IMG/VR virus record: IMGVR_UViG_2541047784_000010
Location: 1 to 40,741 of that record
DNA length: 40,741 nucleotides
Reading direction: 5' to 3' (one strand)
DNA from: a virus
Lineage: Duplodnaviria; Heunggongvirae; Uroviricota; Caudoviricetes
Under the pieces are notes generated by a model that did no database searches, was not told the DNA's origin, and saw nothing but the letters and a program-made list of their open reading frames with translations. Below, piece after piece: positions 2,851 through 40,741 of the stretch (its first letter is position 1; every line of letters begins with the position of its first letter). A program made the translations under genes and the position numbers.

Positions 2851-3405
2851 TTATAGCTCCTTTAATCGAGGCGGTTCTGGTAGAGGCATCCAGTGGGTTA
2901 CATCGCATTCAGGGATGCTGATATCATCACCAAGCCACCCTTGACCTTCAGACCAGCATTGCACGTAATACCTGTATTCTGTGTTCACTACGCACCACTG
3001 CGCGTCGTCCGGCATTCGCTCACTACAGCTTATCCAACCATCCGGAGTTACCGGAGAGTTGCCCGATGGCTCGTTCAACTTGCAAGTTTGGCTTACAGGT
3101 TCGGCTTCCAGTTCTGCTATGCGCTTTTTTGCTGCTTCCAGCTCGCCAAGCAGCGCCAAGACGGTAGCCGGATTGGCTGCGGCGATGAATTCAGCATTGG
3201 CCTGCTGTTCCATTTGGAAATCTTCATCGAAACCGCTTTCTGGATGCGCTCCCTCAATTCTGCAAATGGGAATATATCCAGCAACTTCACGATGAATTAG
3301 CGCATCATCACCATCAAATCGGTCCTCTCCATATTCGAGCGACCACACACCACACGTTGCTTTCTCTGCCTTTTCACGCAGTGCCTGATAGTCAATCTTG
3401 CTCAT
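2851..3405 (-). CDS. Ead/Ea22-like early protein with DUF551-like C-terminal domain
   Basis: 184 aa; coiled-coil middle (LLGELEAAKKRIAELEAE) and Trp/Cys-rich C-terminal region typical of lambdoid Ea22-family proteins; position between xis and recombination genes. Confidence 0.55.
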   Translation of the reverse strand: MSKIDYQALREKAEKATCGVWSLEYGEDRFDGDDALIHREVAGYIPICRIEGAHPESGFDEDFQMEQQANAEFIAAANPATVLALLGELEAAKKRIAELEAEPVSQTCKLNEPSGNSPVTPDGWISCSERMPDDAQWCVVNTEYRYYVQCWSEGQGWLGDDISIPECDVTHWMPLPEPPRLKEL

Positions 3406-30371: not shown

Positions 30372-31721
30372 ATGGCTACGTGGCAACAGGGTATTAATTC
30401 TGGTGGTTTTCTGGCTGGCATCGGTACGCAAAATGAGAATGCGCCAAAGGCAAGCGACATTAACGCAACGCTTGGTCTGATCCGCGAAAACAATGAACTG
30501 GCTCGCTCAGGTGCAAATAACATTGGTCTGACCGCGTTACGTGGTCTGGCTGGAGTTGCTGATATTTACAATCAGGAACAGCAACAGAAAGCTATTAGTG
30601 CGTTCAATAAGGTTCACGCTGATGCATGGGCTTCTGGTGATCCATCTGGACTATTTAAGTTTGCCCAGGAAAATCCAGCGTTTGTTGCACAGGCACAACA
30701 GGCGTTTTCCGGTCTTAATGAGCAGCAACGCAACGATATGGGCGATTTAGCCATGAGGGCTAACGTCGCTCTTTCTCAGGGACCGGAAGCCTACAGTAAA
30801 TTCATTACTGACAACAAGGACAGGTTAAATCGCGTTGGTGCTAATGCTGACTGGATGATTCAGACAGGTATCCAGAATCCAGAGCAGCTATCACACATGC
30901 TGACTACTATGTCTCTCGGTGCGCTTGGACCAGAAAAGGCGTTTGCTGTTCAGGATAAGATGGTTGGTCGCCAGCAGGAGCAGCAAAGAATTAACGAAAC
31001 CATTCGCAATAATGACATGACGAATGCGAGGGCTATTAGGGGGCAGGATCTTTCCTATAAGGCTCAAATGGCAAGACTGAATCACGACAAGTATGTGTTT
31101 AAGCAGTCACAGGCGGCCCTTGAAAGAGCAGGACAACTTCAGGATATGGATGTTTTGTCTCTTAACTCACAGATAGCAGCGACGGGAATTGATCCGCTAA
31201 CCGGTAAAGCTGCAACGTCAGCCAGAATGTCTCAGGCTAAGAGATGGCTTGATGGCAACAATAATTACAACAATGCGTTGATTACTGGTGAGCGAGGGAT
31301 AGAGAAAATTGATTCTTTGCTTGGTAAGAAGGAGCTTGAAGGTATTGGTCGCTTCGAAGGAAGAAATATAGATGGCTTCACAAGTGCTGAAGGGCTTGCA
31401 AACCGTAATGCGATAGAAGAATTAAAGTCGGGTGCGTTTGTCCAGAACGTGCAGACTATGCGAGGTATGGGTAGCCTCTCCAATGCTGAAGGCCAAAAAC
31501 TGGAAAACCTGATCGCGAAACTCGATATAACACAGCCTGAAGAGGTCGTCAGAAAACAGTTATCTGAAATACGATCTCAATATTCTGTATTTCAAAAGGT
31601 TGCAGCAAGGGAGGCTGAATCAATGGGATATAGTTCATCAGGTTATGACACATATGTTAGTGAGCGAAAATCAGGAAGCGACAGCAATAAGTCCGGTTTC
31701 TCGTCTTTATGGGGTGATTAA
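30372..31721 (+). CDS. Ejection protein (P22 gp20-like)
   Basis: 449 aa; synteny. Confidence 0.6.
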
Positions 31722-33880
31722 TGGCTAAAGCATGGAAAGATGTTATCGCTTCTCCACAGTATCAGGCGTTAACTGAAGAACAGAAAGCACAGGCTCAAGC
31801 GCAATATTTTGATGAGGTTGTTGCCCCTAAGGCTGGTGACAAATGGGCTGAAGCAAGAGAGCAGTTTTATGCAGCATACCCTCCGCCTCAGCAGCAGAAA
31901 GAAGAACCATCATTGATGCAACAAGCTGGCGATTGGCTCACTGGTGGTCAAAGTGCAGGGCAAATTGCAGAGCAGGCTGGTCGTGGTCTGGTAAACATAC
32001 CATTTGACGTATTGCAGGGTGGCGCAAGTCTGATTAATGCAATCAGCCAGGGGCTTGGTGGCCCCAAGGTTTTGGATGATGTCTATCGTCCAGTCGATCG
32101 ACCGACAGACCCTTACGCGCAAGCCGGTGAAACAATTGGTGGGTATCTCCTGCCAATTGGCACAGCAGCAAAAGCTGCTGGAGCGCCAGCAAAGCTCGCA
32201 GGAGACATCGGTTCCGCAGGAAACATGATTGCCGGTTCTCTTGCTGATGCTGCAAATCAGGAGGGTGATTTTGCACAAAATGCTGCCATTAACGGTGGTA
32301 TCAATATTGGTGCTCAAGGCGTTCTTTCAGGTGTCGGGCGCGTTATTGCGCCAAGGGTTTCACAGGCTCTTGGTGGTGCAGCACTGAATTCTGCTAATGA
32401 TGTTTCCAGGATGGCAAAGTCAGGTGCTGGGCGTCAGTCAATTGCCAGTCAGGCCGCTAATGTGTCCGAAGATGTAGCAAAAGCGGCTGAGTCTGCTGGA
32501 ATTGATATAAACGCATTAACACCAGGAATGCGATCTGGAAGTCGTGGAATTGCACAAGCCGAAGGCGCATTGGCATCAACACCAGGGATTGTTCAGGATG
32601 CCCATCAGGCAGCATTTAACGAAATATCATCAAAGTTAAGTCGAAACCTTGATGAATTTGGGGCCGCATCTGGAACGGCATCAGAAAAAAGTGCGGCTAT
32701 AAAACAAAGGATTCTTCAAAATCTTGATCAGATGAAGGATGCTGAGCGCGCGGCATGGGATGACGTGCGGTCAACAATGCCAAATCAAAAAGCAAGAATG
32801 CTAAATGGTAATGCCGTTATTCAGGCAGAGCGATCTGCTGGCATACCGCTTACTCCTGAAATGAAACAGTTTGTTCAGGCAAACAATCAAGGTGGAGTAA
32901 CATTTGATGGCATGAAAGCATGGAGAGCGAAATTTGCTGATGCGGAGCAAAAATATAAGCGTAGCGGAGAGGCAAATGCGGCAAGGAGAGCAGGGGAAAT
33001 ACGCCGGGCAATTACTGATGATATGCGCACAATGGCGGAAAACGGCGGATTTCTTGATGACTGGCAGAAAGCTAATGATCTGTCTAAAGCGAGGTTATCA
33101 GCACAAGAGAGTGCAGAGTCTGTTTTCGGGCGTGATTTGGCAACAGATGCACTGATTACGAATGGAGTAAAATCCCTTCAATCATCGTCAGCTAAAGGTC
33201 TTAATGGTCCTGCTGGGTTCCATTCTATGATCCGCGCGCTGCCAGAATCAGAGCGTGTTCCTGCTATATCATCAATGTTGCAAGATGCTATCTCGCATGG
33301 TGTACGTGGTGGCAAAGCTGATGCAGCAGGAATTAACCATATCGCAGGGATACTTACCCCACAAAATGTAAAAGCCATTAGCAGATATTCCTCAGATCTC
33401 GGAAGAATTGCTGATGCATATGGCACTCTTGCAAGAGCGGCAGTGAAACCTCAGCAGTATATTGAAAGAACAGGGAGAACTGCCAATGTACTACGCGATC
33501 TGGATGCTGGTTTATCCAACGTCACATCAACAGTGTTAAATGCAATTGCCAACTCAACATCAGGTGCCATTGTTGGTGGCGCTGGAGGGGGTATTGCAGG
33601 CGCTGCCGCGGGTGCTTTAGTTGGCGCCGGGTTAAAAGGTGCTGTATCTAAAATTGCCACCACGCGTAGCGGTCGATATGCGATAGAGAAAGCAGTTCAG
33701 GAAGCCACGAAAGCAGTAAGAGCTGGCGGAAGTAAAGAAGCATTAGCGGCGGCGGAACGCAGATTTATGGCAAATAAAGCCGCCGTAAAAGCAATACGTG
33801 ATGCAGTTGGAAACGAAGAGTTCAATCGCTTAGCGAGGGCTGGCATTGTAGCGTCGCTAAGCGGAATAGCACAGGAGTAA
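31721..33880 (+). CDS. Ejection / DNA transfer protein (P22 gp16-like)
   Basis: 719 aa Ala/Gly-rich; synteny; last gene of virion operon before immI region. Confidence 0.6.
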
Positions 33881-34204
33881 TTAATCATCCATGGATGGAT
33901 TGAGCTTATCTCGTGTTGATGTGGCGATTTGTCCTACATTCCTAAGCCAAGATTTCAAATCCTTGATATTGTCATTGATTTCATGAATATCTTCTTTTTT
34001 TAGTCTGTTAATATTATTCTCAATAATTTCAATGGATTGCTCAATATCAGATATAGTGAATGATAGTTTGTTCTTCTCATCTTTTATTGAGTTTTTAAGT
34101 GCTTCGTTCTCAGTCTTGAGGTCAGATATCTTTTGTTTTAAAGATGCCAGTTGGTACTGAACCACAATGAGTGCGATAGCTATCACGATAACTGTTGTAT
34201 ACAC
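33881..34204 (-). CDS. Membrane-anchored coiled-coil protein (107 aa), AT-rich
   Basis: N-terminal TM helix TTVIVIAIALIVVQY followed by heptad-rich sequence; AAGGAG RBS; last gene of mnt operon. Confidence 0.55.
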   Translation of the reverse strand: MYTTVIVIAIALIVVQYQLASLKQKISDLKTENEALKNSIKDEKNKLSFTISDIEQSIEIIENNINRLKKEDIHEINDNIKDLKSWLRNVGQIATSTRDKLNPSMDD

Positions 34205-34225
34205 ACAAATCTCCTTAGTTAGTAG

Positions 34226-34561
34226 CTATTTGGTAACCAAGGCAATAAACAGCGGAGCAAGGATTGCAGATATCATGAGGGCGATAAGCCACTTCTGATT
34301 CTCGTCCATCTTATCTGCTAGGCGACGCTCCATTCCGTGCATGTCGCCACGGATGCCAATCAACTCTTTTCTAGTTTCTGATATTAGCTTTTCTTGGTTG
34401 GCGGCAATCGTTTCAATGCGGGTCATTCTACTGTTCATATCTGATCCTCCTCCATTGCCACCTCCATGTGCTGGCTCTTCTGAGTCTTCAATTCCGATGG
34501 GGGCAAATTCGCTATTCGGAAAAGGATTGTCAGCATCGTAAGCCAACTTCAACTTAGACAT
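34226..34561 (-). CDS. C-tail-anchored membrane protein (111 aa)
   Basis: Gly-rich acidic N-terminal region, C-terminal TM helix WLIALMISAILAPLFIALV; overlaps upstream gene by 8 nt. Confidence 0.55.
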   Translation of the reverse strand: MSKLKLAYDADNPFPNSEFAPIGIEDSEEPAHGGGNGGGSDMNSRMTRIETIAANQEKLISETRKELIGIRGDMHGMERRLADKMDENQKWLIALMISAILAPLFIALVTK

Positions 34562-34919
34562 TGCTGTTTTTCTCCCTTAGATACCAGCTTAACACAACAC
34601 CTGTGTTGTACTGCATAATGTATCCGCAATGCTTGCAAATTACATGATAAGAGTAATTTATTGGGTTGAATGATTCATCTTCGTTTTTTATATATTCACC
34701 ATAATGGGCATGCCTACCCATGATGTCTTTTCCATTATCCTGATTTACAAATTGAACTTGAGGGACAACCATTTCAGACTGCCCGCACATTGGGCATTCG
34801 TCTGGAACACCTTTAGCTCTCAAGAAAGAGTCGAGAACCTTTGTAGTTATAGACGATAGCGCCTTGCGATATTCAGCCTCTCGCAGTTGATCGTCTGAGT
34901 ATCCTGAATTGTCACTCAT
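34554..34919 (-). CDS. Zinc-ribbon protein (121 aa)
   Basis: CPMCG...CKHCG cysteine pairs; ATGA overlap with mnt stop. Confidence 0.55.
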   Translation of the reverse strand: MSDNSGYSDDQLREAEYRKALSSITTKVLDSFLRAKGVPDECPMCGQSEMVVPQVQFVNQDNGKDIMGRHAHYGEYIKNEDESFNPINYSYHVICKHCGYIMQYNTGVVLSWYLREKNSNV

Positions 34920-35167
34920 TTTTCATCCTTACCATACATGGTCTTTAGCGTCTCAACATCGCGTTCAAGATCTATCAATCGTGATGCTATAGTTGCAAGG
35001 TCTAGTGCTTGAATGTGTTTATTTTTTTCGGTCCACGCTTCAAGTGCCGCGACCATCTCAGCATTTAATGAACGAGAATTAGCCTCAGCCAGTTCAATAA
35101 GACGTTCCTTTATCTCTACAGGAAGCCTCAGATTCACTTGAGGGTTTTTGTACTTACGATCAGACAT
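34916..35167 (-). CDS. mnt: Mnt-like ribbon-helix-helix repressor
   Basis: 83 aa (P22 Mnt length); N-terminal RHH motif LRLPVEIKERLIELAEANSRSLNAEMVAAL; divergent from arc-ant. Confidence 0.75.
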   Translation of the reverse strand: MSDRKYKNPQVNLRLPVEIKERLIELAEANSRSLNAEMVAALEAWTEKNKHIQALDLATIASRLIDLERDVETLKTMYGKDEK

Positions 35168-35272
35168 CGGCGCATCCTGAATAATTTTTTACCACAGGAT
35201 ATGTAGGTATCTATTGACTATCAATGCGTACCTAAATACTATGTATGCGTACCGCATACAACGGAGGATGCA
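35168..35272. promoter_or_regulatory. Divergent Pmnt/Pant region with palindromic operators (putative)
   Basis: Pant TTGACT-N17-TACTAT; palindromes TTGA-cta-TCAA (over -35) and perfect TATGCG-tac-CGCATA (35244-35258, at predicted start site before arc RBS). Confidence 0.6.
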
Positions 35273-35413
35273 ATGAAGGTAAAAACACTGCGTATGCCAG
35301 AGAAGTTAGAAAAAATCCTTGAAGAGAAAGCAAAGGAAGAGTGTCGCTCATTTAGTGCAGAAGTAATTAAACGGGTGATGGACAGCCTGAAGAGAGAGGG
35401 GATAACGGTATGA
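35273..35413 (+). CDS. arc: Arc-like ribbon-helix-helix repressor (46 aa, not in ORF track)
   Basis: Hand-translated MKVKTLRMPEKLEKILEEKAKEECRSFSAEVIKRVMDSLKREGITV; matches P22 Arc pattern (LRWPREVLDLVRKVAEENGRSVNSEIYQRVMESFKKEG); RBS GGAGG. Confidence 0.8.
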   Translation: MKVKTLRMPEKLEKILEEKAKEECRSFSAEVIKRVMDSLKREGITV

Positions 35414-35613
35414 GTAAAGAATGTTGTTTCTGCGGCATTAGCGAATCAGACGCTGATCAAACATACATTTACTCTAAAGAAACAGGTCGGATGCTGTGTA
35501 GTGACTGCGTGTTGGACATCATAAGATACAAGCATCTTGGATGTTCTGCCAGCATTAGCAATATAGGTGAAGTATATGAAGGGAAAGATATAACTGATAG
35601 AGCAGAAAGTTGA
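35410..35613 (+). CDS. Small zinc-ribbon protein (67 aa) between arc and ant
   Basis: CCFCG...CSDC cysteine pairs; ATGA-coupled to arc. Confidence 0.5.
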   Translation: MSKECCFCGISESDADQTYIYSKETGRMLCSDCVLDIIRYKHLGCSASISNIGEVYEGKDITDRAES

Positions 35614-35676
35614 AGCCCCAACTGCGGTAACAGTCAGGGCTTCGGTATCGTAAAACCACGCATAGGAATTAACGAC

Positions 35677-36600
35677 ATGAAAAGTATAGCAACAGCAGTA
35701 TCTACTATCAATGTACCATTCCACGGCGCAGAGCTTTATGTTGTCAATCACAACGGCGAACCGTATACCCCAATGAAACCTATCGTTGAGGGAATGGGGC
35801 TAGACTGGAAATCTCAACATAAGAAGATTTCTCAACGCTTCTCGAAGGGTATGGTGGAAATCACCATACCTTCTGCCGGTGGGGTGCAAGCCATGATTTG
35901 TATGGCTTTACGAAAATTGGCAGCTTGGTTGAACAGCATCAGTCCTAACAAAGTCCGCCCTGAAATCCGCGACAAGGTAATCCAGTATCAGGAAGAGTGT
36001 GACGATGTGCTCTACGAGTACTGGACTAAAGGCCATGTAGTTAATCCACGCAAAGCTAAAAAGGCGTTGCCGGGTAAAATCACCACTGAACAGCAGGAAG
36101 CCATTAAACAACTCGTCATGAGTCGCGGTCAGTCTCTGCCAAAAGAAAAACAGGCGAAGGCAATGATTACCATGTGGTCGTCACTGAAATCTCATTTTGG
36201 GTGTTCATACAAAGAAATCAGCGAGGAGCAGTTTACCGAAGCTCTGTCACTTGCAGCTCGCGTTCCGCTTGAAGGCGAGTTTATCGGCAAACAAGAGAAG
36301 AAAACCAACGAGCTTTCTGCAAAAGAAGCAAACAGCCTTGTATGGTTATGGGATTATGCCAACCGCTCACAGGCATTATTCCGCGAACTGTATCCGGCGC
36401 TAAAACAAATTCAATCGAACTATTCCGGCAGATGCTACGACTATGGTCATGAGTTCTCGTATGTTATCGGAATGGCGAGAGACGTTTTAATCAATCACAC
36501 ACGAGATGTTGATATCAATGAGCCAGACGGACCAACGAATCTTTCCGCATGGATGAGACTTAAGAATAAAGAATTACCTCCTTCAGTACATAACTACTGA
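35677..36600 (+). CDS. ant: Antirepressor (Ant-position protein)
   Basis: 307 aa in the position of P22 ant downstream of arc; N-terminus resembles antirepressor N-terminal domain; followed by terminator. Confidence 0.55.
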   Translation: MKSIATAVSTINVPFHGAELYVVNHNGEPYTPMKPIVEGMGLDWKSQHKKISQRFSKGMVEITIPSAGGVQAMICMALRKLAAWLNSISPNKVRPEIRDKVIQYQEECDDVLYEYWTKGHVVNPRKAKKALPGKITTEQQEAIKQLVMSRGQSLPKEKQAKAMITMWSSLKSHFGCSYKEISEEQFTEALSLAARVPLEGEFIGKQEKKTNELSAKEANSLVWLWDYANRSQALFRELYPALKQIQSNYSGRCYDYGHEFSYVIGMARDVLINHTRDVDINEPDGPTNLSAWMRLKNKELPPSVHNY

Positions 36601-36700: not shown

Positions 36701-39178
36701 ATGACAGATTCAATAAATGCCAATGTTGTAGTGAGTATGCCTTCGCAACTCTTCACTATGGCGCGTTCTTTTAAAGCCGTAGCCAATGGCAAAATTTATA
36801 TCGGTAAAATTGACACTGACCCGGTAAATCCTGAAAACCAGATTCAGGTTTATGTGGAGAACGAAGACGGTTCTCACGTCCCTGTTTCGCAACCAATCAT
36901 CATTAACGCTGCTGGATATCCGGTATATAACGGACAGATTGCCAAGTTCGTAACTGTGCAAGGCCATTCTATGGCTGTTTATGATGCATATGGTGCACAG
37001 CAGTTTTATTTTCCTAATGTGCTGAAGTATGACCCCGATCAGCTACGGCCGCAATTAGAAGATCCAGATGGCGCTAAAAAATATCCTGAGTTGCAGATGG
37101 CACGATGGAGAGATTGTGGAGATGTTAGAGGGTGGGGAGCAAAAATAGATGGGGTAACAGATGATTCAGATGCTTTTATTAAAGCTTTAAACTCTGGAAG
37201 GTCGGTTATAACAATTCCTGAAGGAATATGCATCATCAAGAAGAATATTAACATTCCGGAAGGATGTTCACTGGTTGGATCTGGCATTGATTATTGGGAC
37301 ACATATAGACCAGCGCCTGAAAGATTATTAAAAAGTTGGAGTAAAGGAACCCATCTTGTATTTACTGGTGATGGAGAAAAAAACAAATATTTTTTTAACA
37401 TCTCTAATGAAAGACCAGCTAAAATTGTTGAAGGGATATCTTGTAAGTTCACTGAGTTTACGAATGAAGATTCTGTAGGTGTTACTCCTGCTACACCAAA
37501 AGCCATGAGCGTAGCTGTTAGTATCAACAGGGCATCACAGTTACGCAATCTGAGAATAATGGTAAGTAAAAATGGTATTGAAGGATACAATAACCCTGAT
37601 TCTTATTCATTGGGTGATAACTGGGATATAGGGTTGCATGTATACGATAGCTGTGATTCAGTTATTGATAACGTACAGATTGTCGGCTATTGGAGGGTAA
37701 AAGGACTACTACTGACAGAAAATGACGGGAGCCTTTCAATGAAGGGAAATCCTGAAAAAACGCACTTTAATAACGTTTATGTCCAGTCAGGAATCGCGAT
37801 AAGGAATAGCCCTCAGATTGATCTTGTAAGTAATACTGAAAGCTCAGTGACATTTAAACATAAAAAGTCGATGAGAATAACTTCAGTTAAACAGTTTAAA
37901 ATTGCTGGCAGTGAATCAGTATATACGTATTCAGATGCATCATTTGATGGAACTAACATCACACTATCTGGTATTTCTCCTGAAATACAAGGTACAATAA
38001 GTGTAATCAGGTTTCCGTCAATTGGTAATAATTTTAGCGGGACTGTTTTTGAGAATACAGTAGCCACTACTCTTGATCATACATCAGGTAAGCCATCAGA
38101 ATACTTTGGCCTTCCTGCATCCTTTGCATTAGAGGTTGATGGTTTCCCTGTTCGTAATTTAAGGTTTGATAAATTCAAAGCTCAAACAACATTTGATAAA
38201 GGAAATTGCATTTTTGGTGATTGCCGTGATGTTAAAATAACATCATCTGAGTTTGAAAATGGAATTATGATTGCGTATAACCAGACCGAGACTCAGGGTT
38301 ATACAGGAAATCTTAGATTTTTTGCTTCTGATCTTCAGAGCAGCGTTAACACAAGTGAGTTTAAACCAAGAGACGCATTTGTAGACAATAGACAAATAAA
38401 AACGGAGTTTACTGATGGTTCGTTCATTATAAAGAACTGGAGGCCTACAGATACAAAAATACAATGGTCGTCTGGAGTAGATGCTATTGTTCTTAGAGAG
38501 TCACCTGACGAACAATCAAACGGAAATATTTACGGGTATCACATTGATGGTAAAAGATGGATTAATGTTAGTGGATATAACAAAGATATAAATATTTCAT
38601 CAAGAAACTTAAGCGTAAAAAACCATGGTGATGACTCTGCAGTTATTAATATATTCGGCGACTCTGGAAATATTGCCATTAAAGGTAATTTTTCACCAAT
38701 TATTGATAACAGCAAATCTCTTGGTGCACCATCATTTAGATGGGCTCAGATTTATTCTGCATCCGGGACTATAAGCACATCAGATGAAACACTTAAAACA
38801 ATATATGACATTACTCAGGCAGAGCGTGATGCTGCGCTGGAAATAAAGGGAATTATATGCAAGTTCAGGTTTAATGAGTCGATTAATTTTAAAGGATTGG
38901 AGTTATCAAGGTATCATTTTGGAGTTGGCGCTCAAACCGTAGGAGATATTCTTAGAAAGCATGGTTTAAATCCTGAGCAATATGCTTTTTGGTGTTACGA
39001 TGAATGGCCAGACGTATGGGATGAAGAGGTGATAACTGAAGAGAGCACAGATCCTGATACAGGTGAGAAAATTTATTCTCAATATAAAACAGGAAATATG
39101 ATTCTTGTAAAAAAAGCAGGTGGACGCTACGGAATTCGTTATGACGAATTGGCTATGTTTATATTAATGGCAATGTAG
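36701..39178 (+). CDS. Tailspike: P22-type head-binding domain + beta-helix receptor domain + C-terminal intramolecular chaperone domain
   Basis: 825 aa from [18 protein letters not shown]; N-terminal ~110 aa match P22 gp9 head-binding domain as recalled; C-terminal ~130 aa carry endosialidase-chaperone (peptidase S74-like) pattern with SDETLK autocleavage motif. Confidence 0.9.
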
Positions 39179-39197
39179 TTGCAATAAATGCAGTATA

Positions 39198-39226
39198 TCC
39201 CGCATGAAAACTGCGGGATTGTTTTT
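39198..39226 (+). terminator. Rho-independent terminator after tailspike
   Basis: TCCCGCA-tgaaaac-TGCGGGA followed by TTGTTTTT. Confidence 0.85.
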
Positions 39227-39910
39227 ATCTAGTGTATTTGTGAGTTTTAAATAAAATTTGGTATGGATTCTTGCATCGTAGTGAACGCATGATTACCTAT
39301 GAAACAAAACTGAGACACACAAAGCTTTGCACTGGATTGCAAGGCTTTGTGCTCTTCTATGCTGAGTGGTGGGGCATATATGGGGCAAATCACACAGTTA
39401 GATCTACGGAGAACTACGGTGCTTGATGTTTCAGTCAACTCTAACTGCCTGTTATCTGGTGTGCTCTTGGGCGATCTTTGTCATTTATGAAATATACATG
39501 GTCATATGCAGCCATACCAGATGCCAGTATCAAAGATATCGAGGTACTTACGACACTTTTCTTTAATGCAGACTTCATAAATGTTCCTCTTCTTATTGTA
39601 CTTAATTCCAAAGTAATTTTACGAAGAGAAATAAGTGAATGTAAGTGAAGTTAGTCACATAAAGAGATAGCAGATTTAGCTAAAAAAAGGGAAATAACAG
39701 TCCATAACGCGTTGACATTACTTTCTGTTCTACTAAGTAATTTCTCGCCGATAAACAACTAATCTATTGATATTTAATAAATTATTGTATTTCACTGACA
39801 AATTGCCGAGCTGAGATCATAAATAATCATGCAACAGGTTATGAAAATGCATAAATATGTGATGGCTGTCACTTATTTATTTCAAGAAATATATCGCCTG
39901 GAAACAACGC

Positions 39911-39931
39911 GGGGCAGGGAATGGCTGCCCC
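39911..39931. terminator. Inverted repeat, probable terminator of the AraC-family gene
   Basis: Perfect GGGGCAG-ggaatgg-CTGCCCC about 50 nt beyond the stop of the minus-strand gene; T-rich on minus side. Confidence 0.4.
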
Positions 39932-39979
39932 ATTTAATTCTTACGCAGCGTGTGTGGTTGACTACTCGTTAGCAAATAA

Positions 39980-40741
39980 TCAACTAGCTAAAGCATTCAT
40001 CGTGTTGTCCGTGTTCATACCCGTGTGCCTTTGACAACGGTACTCCTTAGAAACTCTCTTCGGACTGTTGCCGAAATGTTTGCGAAACGCATAAATAAAA
40101 TAAGATGTACTGGCATAACCGCATTGTTCAGCAATTTTATTGACTGAACCTTCTACGCGTATCAAATTTTTCGCGTGCTGCATTCTGGCATCTAAAAGAA
40201 TCTGTGAGAATGTCGTTTGCTCTTGCTTTAGTTTTTTCTTCAACAGGCTTTCACTGATGTACAGGCAGTCACAAATATCTTTCAGCTTCCATGGGTGCGC
40301 CAGCTTCATGTTGACAATATTTCTTACTTTCCCGGAAACGGATAGCACACCGTTAGTTAATAGTGTAATGAAACCTTTGCATGCGGCAAAAATAGACAGG
40401 CAAGAAAAAAGCAAAAGCTCTGAAAAATTATGATGATTGCGTTCTTCCGAGTTGAGATAAGCAATCATTTCATTAAGCAATCCAGTCGGTACATTTGAAG
40501 CACGTAAAAACTTCGCAGGAACAGGCATCGTCACTGTCTGGATGTTAGTGCATTGTAGATATTTTTTAATGGTATTTTCATTAAATCCGATTTCTTTGAA
40601 ATGCCGCTCATAAGGTTCAAAATGCGTGCGAACAGCGTTATCTACCATCAGGATCTCGCCGTCAGAGAAGGCGTAATCTTTATCTAAAATGTTAGCGTTG
40701 AAGGCATGATGAATAAATATAACAGAACAAACGAGCGACAT
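39980..40741 (-). CDS. AraC-family transcriptional regulator (start codon at window edge; may be truncated)
   Basis: 253 aa; C-terminal AraC HTH (ISESLLKKKLKQEQTTFSQILLDARMQHAKNLI...GYASTSYFIYAFRKHFGNSP); AT-rich context. Confidence 0.85.
   Translation of the reverse strand: MSLVCSVIFIHHAFNANILDKDYAFSDGEILMVDNAVRTHFEPYERHFKEIGFNENTIKKYLQCTNIQTVTMPVPAKFLRASNVPTGLLNEMIAYLNSEERNHHNFSELLLFSCLSIFAACKGFITLLTNGVLSVSGKVRNIVNMKLAHPWKLKDICDCLYISESLLKKKLKQEQTTFSQILLDARMQHAKNLIRVEGSVNKIAEQCGYASTSYFIYAFRKHFGNSPKRVSKEYRCQRHTGMNTDNTMNALAS

Follow-up and report, generated by a model that had tools for sequence, protein, structure and literature searches.

Genes carried in prophage repressor operons, such as rexAB, sieB, and bstA, with sieA nearby, are a classic source of exclusion mechanisms, few of which are understood, and accessory immunity genes in such operons are a kind of system that is already well known. 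The HK97 moron gp15 is an inner-membrane superinfection exclusion protein whose gene lies beside the tape-measure gene. The region beside cI is a recognised hotspot carrying rexAB and bstA (PMC8585504), and in phage P22 the slot between genes 16 and 9 holds sieA, whose inner-membrane product excludes superinfecting phages by blocking DNA injection via gp16 and gp20 (PMC10883804). The region reaching from gene 16 to the tailspike side and carrying mnt, arc, and ant was named the "ant moron" by Casjens and colleagues, in a paper that is also the one relevant publication on hkcB that we found, and that assigns no function to HkcB of HK620, CUS-3, or epsilon34 (PMC2629481). Here we analysed a 40,741-nucleotide stretch of viral DNA (IMG/VR record IMGVR_UViG_2541047784_000010, below called the window), in which the maintenance repressor gene mnt is followed on the minus strand by three small genes designated A, B, and C. 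The window is a P22-like (Lederbergvirus) Escherichia coli prophage, ~95-96% identical to HK620, CUS-3, and vB_EcoP-611R6 over positions 12000-36000. Our best explanation, to which we assign a probability of roughly 0.45, is that the region is the distal mnt operon of an HK620/CUS-3-like prophage and carries two independent accessory modules, the A+B pair and C, which would be expressed in the lysogen and interfere with superinfecting phages.

The genes mnt, A, B, and C are four consecutive minus-strand open reading frames (ORFs) arranged head to tail (Table 1). The product of the first matches Pfam Arc PF03869 (40.2 bits, cut-off 20.4) and shares 32% identity with that of P22 mnt (E 3e-11), and arc and ant lie alongside in divergent orientation. 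At the mnt/A junction (AAATGAGTG) the start codon of A lies inside the mnt TGA, giving a 4-nucleotide (nt) ATGA overlap with AAGGA located 6 nt upstream; A and B overlap by 8 nt (ATGTCTAA); and between the TAG of B and the GTG start of C there is a 21-nt spacer with AAGGAG placed 6 nt ahead of that GTG. The stop codons of C and gene 16 abut (33880/33881). The ATGA overlap, the 8-nt overlap, and the AAGGAG site could all be read in the sequence as the initial annotation had given them, and the same is true of the sizes and features it listed, namely a 121-amino-acid (aa) zinc ribbon for A, a 111-aa C-tail-anchored protein for B, and a 107-aa N-anchored protein for C. The statement that all three genes are AT rich holds for C (33.3% GC) and A (40.2%) but not for B (46.4%, against a window mean of 45.6%).

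The orthologues in two divergent metagenomic phages (L011 and L012) were then used to determine the ratio of nonsynonymous to synonymous substitution rates (dN/dS), which amounted to 0.05 for A, 0.08 for B, and 0.18 for C, with dS above 1. Both phages keep the gene order and every junction type, including GGAGG and GTG at the hkcB start. Compared with the window, their mnt is merely 35-37% identical, whereas A and B are 84-85% identical. A, B, and C are real genes under purifying selection in a conserved, translationally coupled array, and a chance origin of these ORFs is ruled out by the dN/dS values together with the kept junctions.

The A ORF is followed by a B-type gene in every one of the 76 viral loci in which an A ORF could be recognised, at offsets of -80 to +3 nt, i.e., overlapping or abutting. 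The downstream partner of A has 96-165 aa; it starts with a [DY]FPxH-type N-terminal segment, after which come a glycine run and a coiled coil, and it ends in a transmembrane (TM) segment. Its coiled coil plus TM part is mosaic, and the architecture is constant. C follows B in just five of these loci, all of them P22-like, and the other 71 have A+B without C. A Salmonella subfamily (P0060), which is ~21-25% identical, shows the A-B pair with a TAATG overlap and with terminators on both sides at the end of a P2/HP1-like prophage; this subfamily has no representative in IMG/VR. An unrelated protein of 75 aa with two TM segments comes after mnt-A-B in E. coli E200086 (L087), where the neighbouring gp16 is of a different type. 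It is thus firmly shown that A+B is an obligate, mobile two-gene unit independent of C, and the two proteins presumably interact physically. The gene for the two-TM protein of L087 occupies 3127-3354 on the minus strand of that locus and belongs to phrog_7294.

The pair is repeatedly linked to lysogeny repressors. In P22-like phages, A+B stands behind mnt (the window and L008-L012); in a Pectobacterium lambdoid prophage (L179) it lies directly behind a CI(S24)/LexA-type repressor gene, joined to it by a TAATG stop/start overlap; and in a 186-like Citrobacter prophage (L177) the order is cI-Flk_N-A-B-int. A+B therefore recurs behind three kinds of lysogeny repressor, i.e., Mnt, lambdoid CI, and the 186-like cI-int operon. 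Siphoviruses of the SPN3UB, S107, and Klebsiella types carry the pair in a Mnt/Arc/Ant moron island upstream of the tape-measure gene, on the ant strand, and it is found at the P2-like prophage end as well. An XhlA-domain gene beside cI has been reported from a Mannheimia lambda-like phage (PMC4553209).

B-type proteins also pair with at least two further unrelated families, phrog_5893 (X2, 136-145 aa) and phrog_4231 (X3, 91 aa). Behind mnt, these form mnt-X2-B-hkcB (L122 and L124) and mnt-X3-B-hkcB (L125), and behind cI the order cI-X2-B is found in Rac-like prophages of E. coli, Klebsiella, and Kluyvera (L171-L176 and L180), in the slot of rexAB and sieB. X2 behind mnt and X2 behind cI fall into the same PHROG, phrog_5893. 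The motif [FY][PT]...GG was present in the N-terminal segment of 17 of the 19 A-partnered B subtypes and appears to be lacking from the four X2- or X3-partnered B-types inspected, so that this segment varies with the partner family, as expected if it docks the partner. It is firmly shown that B-type anchors are modular and have been wired into lysogeny-repressor operons repeatedly. As a separate observation, in L171-L173 and L176 the X2 (140-145 aa; phrog_5893 in L174) and B genes lie upstream of kilR or ydaE and recE.

C is HkcB, the product of a gene already named but unstudied in HK620, CUS-3, and epsilon34. It matches phrog_5962 over residues 1-107 (E 1.4e-58) and is 99% identical to epsilon34 gp14, 97% to CUS-3 HkcB, and 56% to HK620 HkcB (NP_112088). 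Its one hydrophobic stretch covers residues 4-22 (Kyte-Doolittle 19-residue mean of 2.20), and its AlphaFold model consists of a single helix over residues 2-101 with a predicted local distance difference test (pLDDT) score of 92. The best-conserved part of HkcB is the C-terminal tail, EDIH...LKSWL.NVG.IA.STRDKLNPSMDD (NVGxIAxSTRDKLNPSMDD). No basic residue precedes the TM segment, and K23 and K25 follow it, so that, according to the positive-inside rule, the long helix and the tail are predicted to face the cytoplasm. We retrieved 63 hkcB loci from IMG/VR (L104-L166), and in the ~60 that could be scored the gene stands tail to tail with gene 16, whatever stands upstream; three different gp16 types occur among these convergent pairs. 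The window matches epsilon34, CUS-3, and SEN22 in DNA sequence from gene 16 through hkcB, up to the hkcB ribosome-binding site, where the identity ends. Of 5426 complete E. coli genomes, 333 (~6%) contain DNA resembling hkcB. The stretch 33741-34002 of the window, comprising the last ~140 bp of gene 16 and the 3' end of hkcB, is 85.6% identical to HK620 and marks a conserved mosaic junction across two convergent gene ends; the HK620-type and CUS-3-type gp16 proteins are reported to be only ~26% identical overall (PMC10883804).

Upstream of hkcB the same loci are hypervariable. The mnt-hkcB gap ranges from -4 (a 4-nt overlap, L146) to 2765 bp and holds about a dozen alternative cargoes, among them a Panacea (SocA) antitoxin with its partner, a PIN protein with its partner, the YafO toxin with its partner, a ClpP-like gene, P63C, and DUF1902. 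Further occupants of the slot are the CUS-3 pair and, on the opposite strand, the epsilon34 gp15 lipoprotein gene or hkcC. The mnt-hkcB interval is thus firmly shown to be a cargo hotspot of P22-like prophages. The initial annotation had placed the three genes in the position of P22 sieA; the position is equivalent, but the P22 slot also holds orf59a, which is followed by a terminator and then by sieA with a promoter of its own. Directly beside gene 16, all the occupants seen were envelope proteins, namely SieA, HkcB, the 75-aa two-TM protein, and the Gally lipoprotein, the last represented in L088 (2855-3340, minus strand) by a 161-aa lipoprotein corresponding to Gally GALLYPH_13. In E. coli ETEC1721 (L085, 4419-5209) the gene for the ClpP-like protease is joined to mnt by a TAATG overlap, as A is joined to mnt.

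These data also bear on the claim of the initial annotation that the region is a single three-gene cassette, and on the corresponding reading of A, B, and C as one membrane complex of three proteins serving exclusion or defence. The three genes are contiguous and co-oriented, the order mnt-A-B-C occurs in five viral contigs, including the divergent L011 and L012, and in full in nine of the 5426 complete E. coli genomes, among them strains ISHS7 and ST131 strain 4993, and both B and C are coiled-coil membrane proteins, all of which would fit such a complex. However, A+B lacks C in the 71 loci mentioned above and in all the non-P22-like contexts, in L087 the pair precedes the unrelated two-TM protein and gene 16 is of another type, some dozen other cargoes are found upstream of C, which may also stand straight after mnt, and the DNA identity to epsilon34 and CUS-3 ends exactly at the hkcB ribosome-binding site. 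A single complex is therefore improbable, and the claim was abandoned in favour of two modules, of which HkcB is the one tied to gene 16.

In protein B the partner-specific N-terminal segment leads into a Gly-rich linker (HGGGNGGG), which is followed by a coiled coil and, at the C terminus, a TM segment. Its one hydrophobic stretch covers residues 92-110 of 111 (Kyte-Doolittle 19-residue mean of 2.63), with a heptad-like pattern upstream. Against Pfam XhlA PF10779 it scored 20.7 bits, below the cut-off of 34.7, with only residues 83-103 (the TM segment) aligned; ten of the 18 B subtypes match this family, all below threshold (best E 1.6e-6), and the B family also matches the "holin" phrog_689 (best E 1.7e-8). 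Klebsiella relatives that are 70-75% identical to B residues 41-111 (C-terminal 64%) do carry PF10779 and are named "hemolysin XhlA family protein" by NCBI. B is, on the strength of these profile matches, a divergent XhlA relative and not a scored member of the family. Many database entries of B-type proteins lack the partner-specific N-terminal segment because the annotated start is a Met inside the protein, downstream of the glycine run, as in L087 (3411-3632, 73 versus 118 aa), L005 (5446-5658, 70 versus ~100 aa), and L171 (4001-4285, 94 versus 129 aa). The alignment of B-type proteins to PHROG 3556 (profile length 276) is confined to profile positions ~151-265, so that this PHROG may include longer fusions of a partner domain with a B-type anchor.

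The XhlA and holin matches, the names of the Klebsiella relatives, and the co-orientation of siphovirus A+B with ant and tail genes would agree with A+B being a module that times lysis in the phage's own lytic cycle or assists its holin, as XhlA does with XhlB and XlyA in Bacillus PBSX. The placement of the pair argues otherwise. In none of the loci examined does A+B adjoin holin, endolysin, spanin, or other lysis genes, and in the window B lies between mnt and gene 16, with a complete and separate cassette of S-type holin and Rz 16 kb away, which led us to reject A and B as the phage's own lysis genes. The positions behind mnt, behind cI, and between cI and int would place the pair in lysogenic transcripts, and the XhlA score of B is below threshold and confined to the TM region. 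We therefore consider a role of A+B in lysis to be quite unlikely.

The name given to relatives of B in the databases, "hemolysin XhlA," points in yet another direction, i.e., that A, B, and C are lysogenic-conversion or host-fitness genes, concerned with envelope stress, macrophage survival, or haemolysis and not acting on phages. The "haemolysin" label stems from a large, unrelated Xenorhabdus protein, which is consistent with its use in the paper on the Mannheimia phage. A tail-anchored protein with two residues past the TM segment would also be unable to reach a host cell. Support for a fitness role could also be sought in Gally, a P22-like prophage of E. coli LF82, in which the gene beside gene 16 is transcribed ~4.5-fold over the prophage background in lysogeny broth and much more in Dulbecco's modified Eagle medium or in macrophages, and in which mnt shows a 40-fold rise in macrophages (PMC9928086). 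Yet the deletion of mnt in Gally had no effect in macrophages (PMC9928086), and the Gally slot genes encode proteins different from A, B, and C, both of them lipoproteins. We regard a pure host-fitness role as very unlikely.

Protein A is acidic (pI 5.5), has no hydrophobic segment, and is predicted to be cytoplasmic. In 68 aligned relatives, C42, C45, C95, and C98, which form two CxxC pairs, are invariant, and W112 is nearly so. An exhaustive profile search returned 141 cluster representatives at E <=0.001, nearly all of them standalone proteins of 49-180 aa, with no informative domain fusion among them. Every named relative is annotated as hypothetical and every one checked is from Enterobacterales, as are ten of the 11 loci found in a genome context scan with the A alignment. 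The AlphaFold model (pLDDT 74.6) opens with two helices and closes with a third, and between them it has zinc knuckles, a disordered insert, and a beta hairpin. Foldseek gave no significant fold match (best E 0.53 in PDB and 0.018 in BFVD), and a profile search of PDB sequences gave nothing better than E 0.33. A role of A as a DNA-binding regulator was considered and found unlikely, given its pI and its obligate pairing with a membrane protein.

The view in the initial annotation that none of the three proteins belongs to a known family thus stands for A, but C falls into phrog_5962 and the Klebsiella relatives of B carry PF10779. The profile and structure searches it had called for identified C as HkcB and returned no characterised homologue and no defence match.

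Being two small, translationally coupled genes with the partner placed first, A and B resemble type II toxin-antitoxin (TA) operons in layout. The pair could accordingly be an addiction module of this kind without any role against phages, in which B would be a membrane toxin and the upstream partner its neutraliser. The Panacea, PIN, and YafO modules occupy the same slot, and holin-like proteins that are made constitutively need restraint. Neither A nor B, however, matches a TA family in Pfam, NCBIfam, or PADLOC, and it is the putative effector that is conserved and the partner that varies, a pattern that suits a sensor as well as an antitoxin. TA and abortive infection functions are, moreover, compatible with each other. 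On balance, an addiction pair and nothing else seems unlikely.

As to regulation, two promoter-like sites were found within 33500-35700, forming a divergent pair in the mnt-arc spacer that is arranged like the annotated Pmnt/Pant pair of P22. The palindrome directly after the -10 element of the Pant-like promoter would be the Mnt operator, as P22 has its mnt operator there. No convincing terminator was found between mnt and the end of C, the one match being weak and located within a gene. A, B, and hkcB are thus probably expressed from Pmnt. The expectation in the initial annotation that the genes are transcribed in lysogens is strengthened by the lack of convincing terminators and by the cI-linked copies of A+B, the expression itself being presumed.

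Taken as a description of gene architecture, our explanation is very likely correct; its functional part, an action against phages, is drawn by analogy and has somewhat less than an even chance. Interference expressed from the lysogen is favoured because the repressor-proximal slot is the one held elsewhere by rexAB, sieB, and bstA, and the gene-16-proximal slot is the one held by sieA. On the same side count the varied cargo of the mnt-hkcB interval, which behaves as an accessory or defence hotspot would, the transcription of mnt and of the gene beside gene 16 in Gally, the Mannheimia XhlA-domain gene beside cI, and the separate holin and Rz of the window. The lysis, TA, and host-fitness explanations each fit the repressor-operon placement less well. 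In the mechanism we propose, B would be a tail-anchored inner-membrane protein whose Gly-rich linker is flexible and whose coiled coil oligomerises, and A would dock on its N-terminal segment and so be held at the cytoplasmic face of the inner membrane, both being made continuously in lysogens from the repressor promoter. Upon superinfection, A may sense or bind a phage component, after which the A-B complex could block an early step at the membrane, or the holin-like B could collapse membrane integrity in a Rex-like abortive infection. HkcB would be a bitopic inner-membrane protein in the sieA position that most likely acts on P22-like DNA delivery, as SieA does.

Several points weigh against an anti-phage role. 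No experiment or characterised homologue ties A, B, or HkcB to phage resistance, and in PADLOC-DB 2.0 we found for A only Cas10 at E 0.012, for B nothing, and for C only matches of the coiled-coil type, none stronger than E 6e-4. Against Pfam and NCBIfam, the three proteins gave only generic zinc-ribbon, coiled-coil, or subthreshold matches. The sole XhlA protein studied, that of PBSX, is a lysis accessory factor (PMC5589764), and our literature search returned no paper linking XhlA to phage defence; HepS (PMC13043305) was considered and is unrelated. The Pmnt-like promoter matches the consensus at nine of 12 positions, and shuffled sequence yields more such matches than were observed. In the commonest context, comprising ~70 siphovirus loci, A+B lies on the strand of ant and the tail genes, and in the 200 bp upstream of A the best sigma-70 matches were no better than those in random segments, so that its expression in these phages could fall in the early or late lytic phase and not in lysogeny.

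A, its pairing with an XhlA-like anchor, the swapping of partners, and the recurrent linkage to repressors are undescribed in the literature searched. A more far-reaching interpretation, which we consider doubtful, is that A+B, X2+B, and X3+B constitute an undescribed modular family of prophage immunity operons of Enterobacterales, with an XhlA/holin-like effector, a swappable docking segment, and interchangeable cytoplasmic sensors (A, phrog_5893, and phrog_4231), forming a counterpart of RexAB built from unrelated parts, and that hkcB represents a second, SieA-independent class of exclusion genes directed at ejection proteins. In any case, an anonymous stretch of three ORFs has been resolved into two defined and testable units, the A+B (or partner-swapping) module and hkcB. 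The partner-swapping architecture behind unrelated repressors suggests a sensor-effector design, and hkcB is present in the model phages HK620 and CUS-3, for which genetic tools and the SieA assay system exist. If either unit excludes phages, it would represent a new mechanism of immunity at the membrane level and explain in part why the ant moron is hypervariable; if neither does, the slot still documents a hotspot for TA-like cargo.

The remaining features of the region agree with a P22-like organisation (Table 1). To the right of mnt there follow, in order, the divergent promoter region, arc, a 67-aa Cys-rich ORF, ant, and the tailspike gene, and the gene 20 homologue adjoining gene 16 carries the Pfam domain Inj_translocase of the P22 injectosome (E 2e-109). 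The Cys-rich ORF (35410-35613, plus strand; CCFCG...CSDC) belongs to phrog_7150 (E 3e-50), and its ATG shares 4 nt with the arc stop; in P22 this place is taken by the sar antisense RNA region alone. The ORF had no match in Pfam, and its CxxC...CxxC spacing is reminiscent of small zinc-binding domains. At 37000-40000, i.e., in the tailspike body and beyond, the GC content drops to 35-39%, against the window mean, a value typical of exchangeable receptor-binding or O-antigen modules.

Table 1. Coordinates of the mnt operon, its regulatory sites, and neighbouring genes in the window
Feature	Position	Strand	Remarks
S-type holin	17794-18117		Window's own lysis gene
Rz	18574-19011		Window's own lysis gene
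gene 16 (ejection/DNA-transfer protein)	31721-33880	+	Fixed convergent neighbour of hkcB; outside operon
C (hkcB)	33881-34204	-	107 aa; GTG start; N-terminal TM and one long helix; phrog_5962
Shine-Dalgarno AAGGAG of hkcB	plus-strand 34211-34216	-	Inside 21-nt B/C spacer
B	34226-34561	-	111 aa; C-terminal TM; phrog_6324
A	34554-34919	-	121 aa; four-Cys zinc ribbon; phrog_4293
mnt	34916-35167	-	83 aa; ribbon-helix-helix maintenance repressor; first gene of operon
Pmnt-like sigma-70 promoter	35196-35224	-	TTGATA-17-TATCCT; 29 nt upstream of mnt start; consensus match only
Pant-like promoter	35214-35242	+	TTGACT-17-TACTAT; reads into arc, 67-aa ORF, and ant
Candidate Mnt operator	35242-35260	n/a	TGTATGCGgtaCGCATACA; 19-bp perfect palindrome directly after Pant -10
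arc ORF	35273-35413	+	Pfam Arc, E 2.9e-9
ant	35677-36600	+	Matches P22_AR_N and P22_AR_C

When set against the described systems, HkcB agrees with its named counterparts in length and in position relative to gene 16, and no structural difference was noted. The difference lies upstream: in epsilon34 and HK620, hkcB follows a divergent gene (for the gp15 lipoprotein or hkcC, respectively) and must have its own promoter, whereas here it ends the mnt operon. With PBSX XhlA (PF10779), which acts in lysis together with the holin XhlB and the amidase XlyA, B shares the form of a short coiled-coil protein with a C-terminal TM segment; it differs in its extra N-terminal partner segment and Gly-rich linker, in lying outside a lysis cassette, and in its occurrence in immunity regions of Gram-negative prophages. 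HK97 gp15, which is cited in PMC10883804, is an unrelated protein encoded by a single gene and not by an A+B-like pair. The likeness would be that of a small membrane moron beside a DNA-delivery gene, siphovirus A+B being located just upstream of the tape-measure gene.

The resemblance to SieA is one of place and type: the slot is directly after gene 16, on the opposite strand and inside the ant moron, and in both cases a P22-like prophage encodes a small protein of the inner membrane. A reading of A, B, or C as SieA homologues was dropped for want of sequence similarity, as the best BLASTP match covered 18 residues at E 0.087, none of the three proteins has the FxRYPxEAxxFNK motif, and the window contains no sieA homologue. 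SieA is also a multipass protein, whereas HkcB and B are single pass and A has no TM segment. Nor does P22 sieA offer a regulatory precedent, since a promoter is annotated for sieA itself and a terminator behind the P22 mnt operon separates the two. With lambda RexA/RexB, no family match to A, B, or C was found in Pfam, NCBIfam, or PADLOC, and the proteins differ, RexB having four TM segments where B is a tail-anchored coiled coil, and RexA having 279 aa and no zinc ribbon. In gene arrangement alone, the two are alike: lambda carries a soluble and a membrane protein as a pair in the operon of its repressor gene cI, and A+B and X2+B hold the equivalent place behind cI, as A+B does behind mnt in the window.

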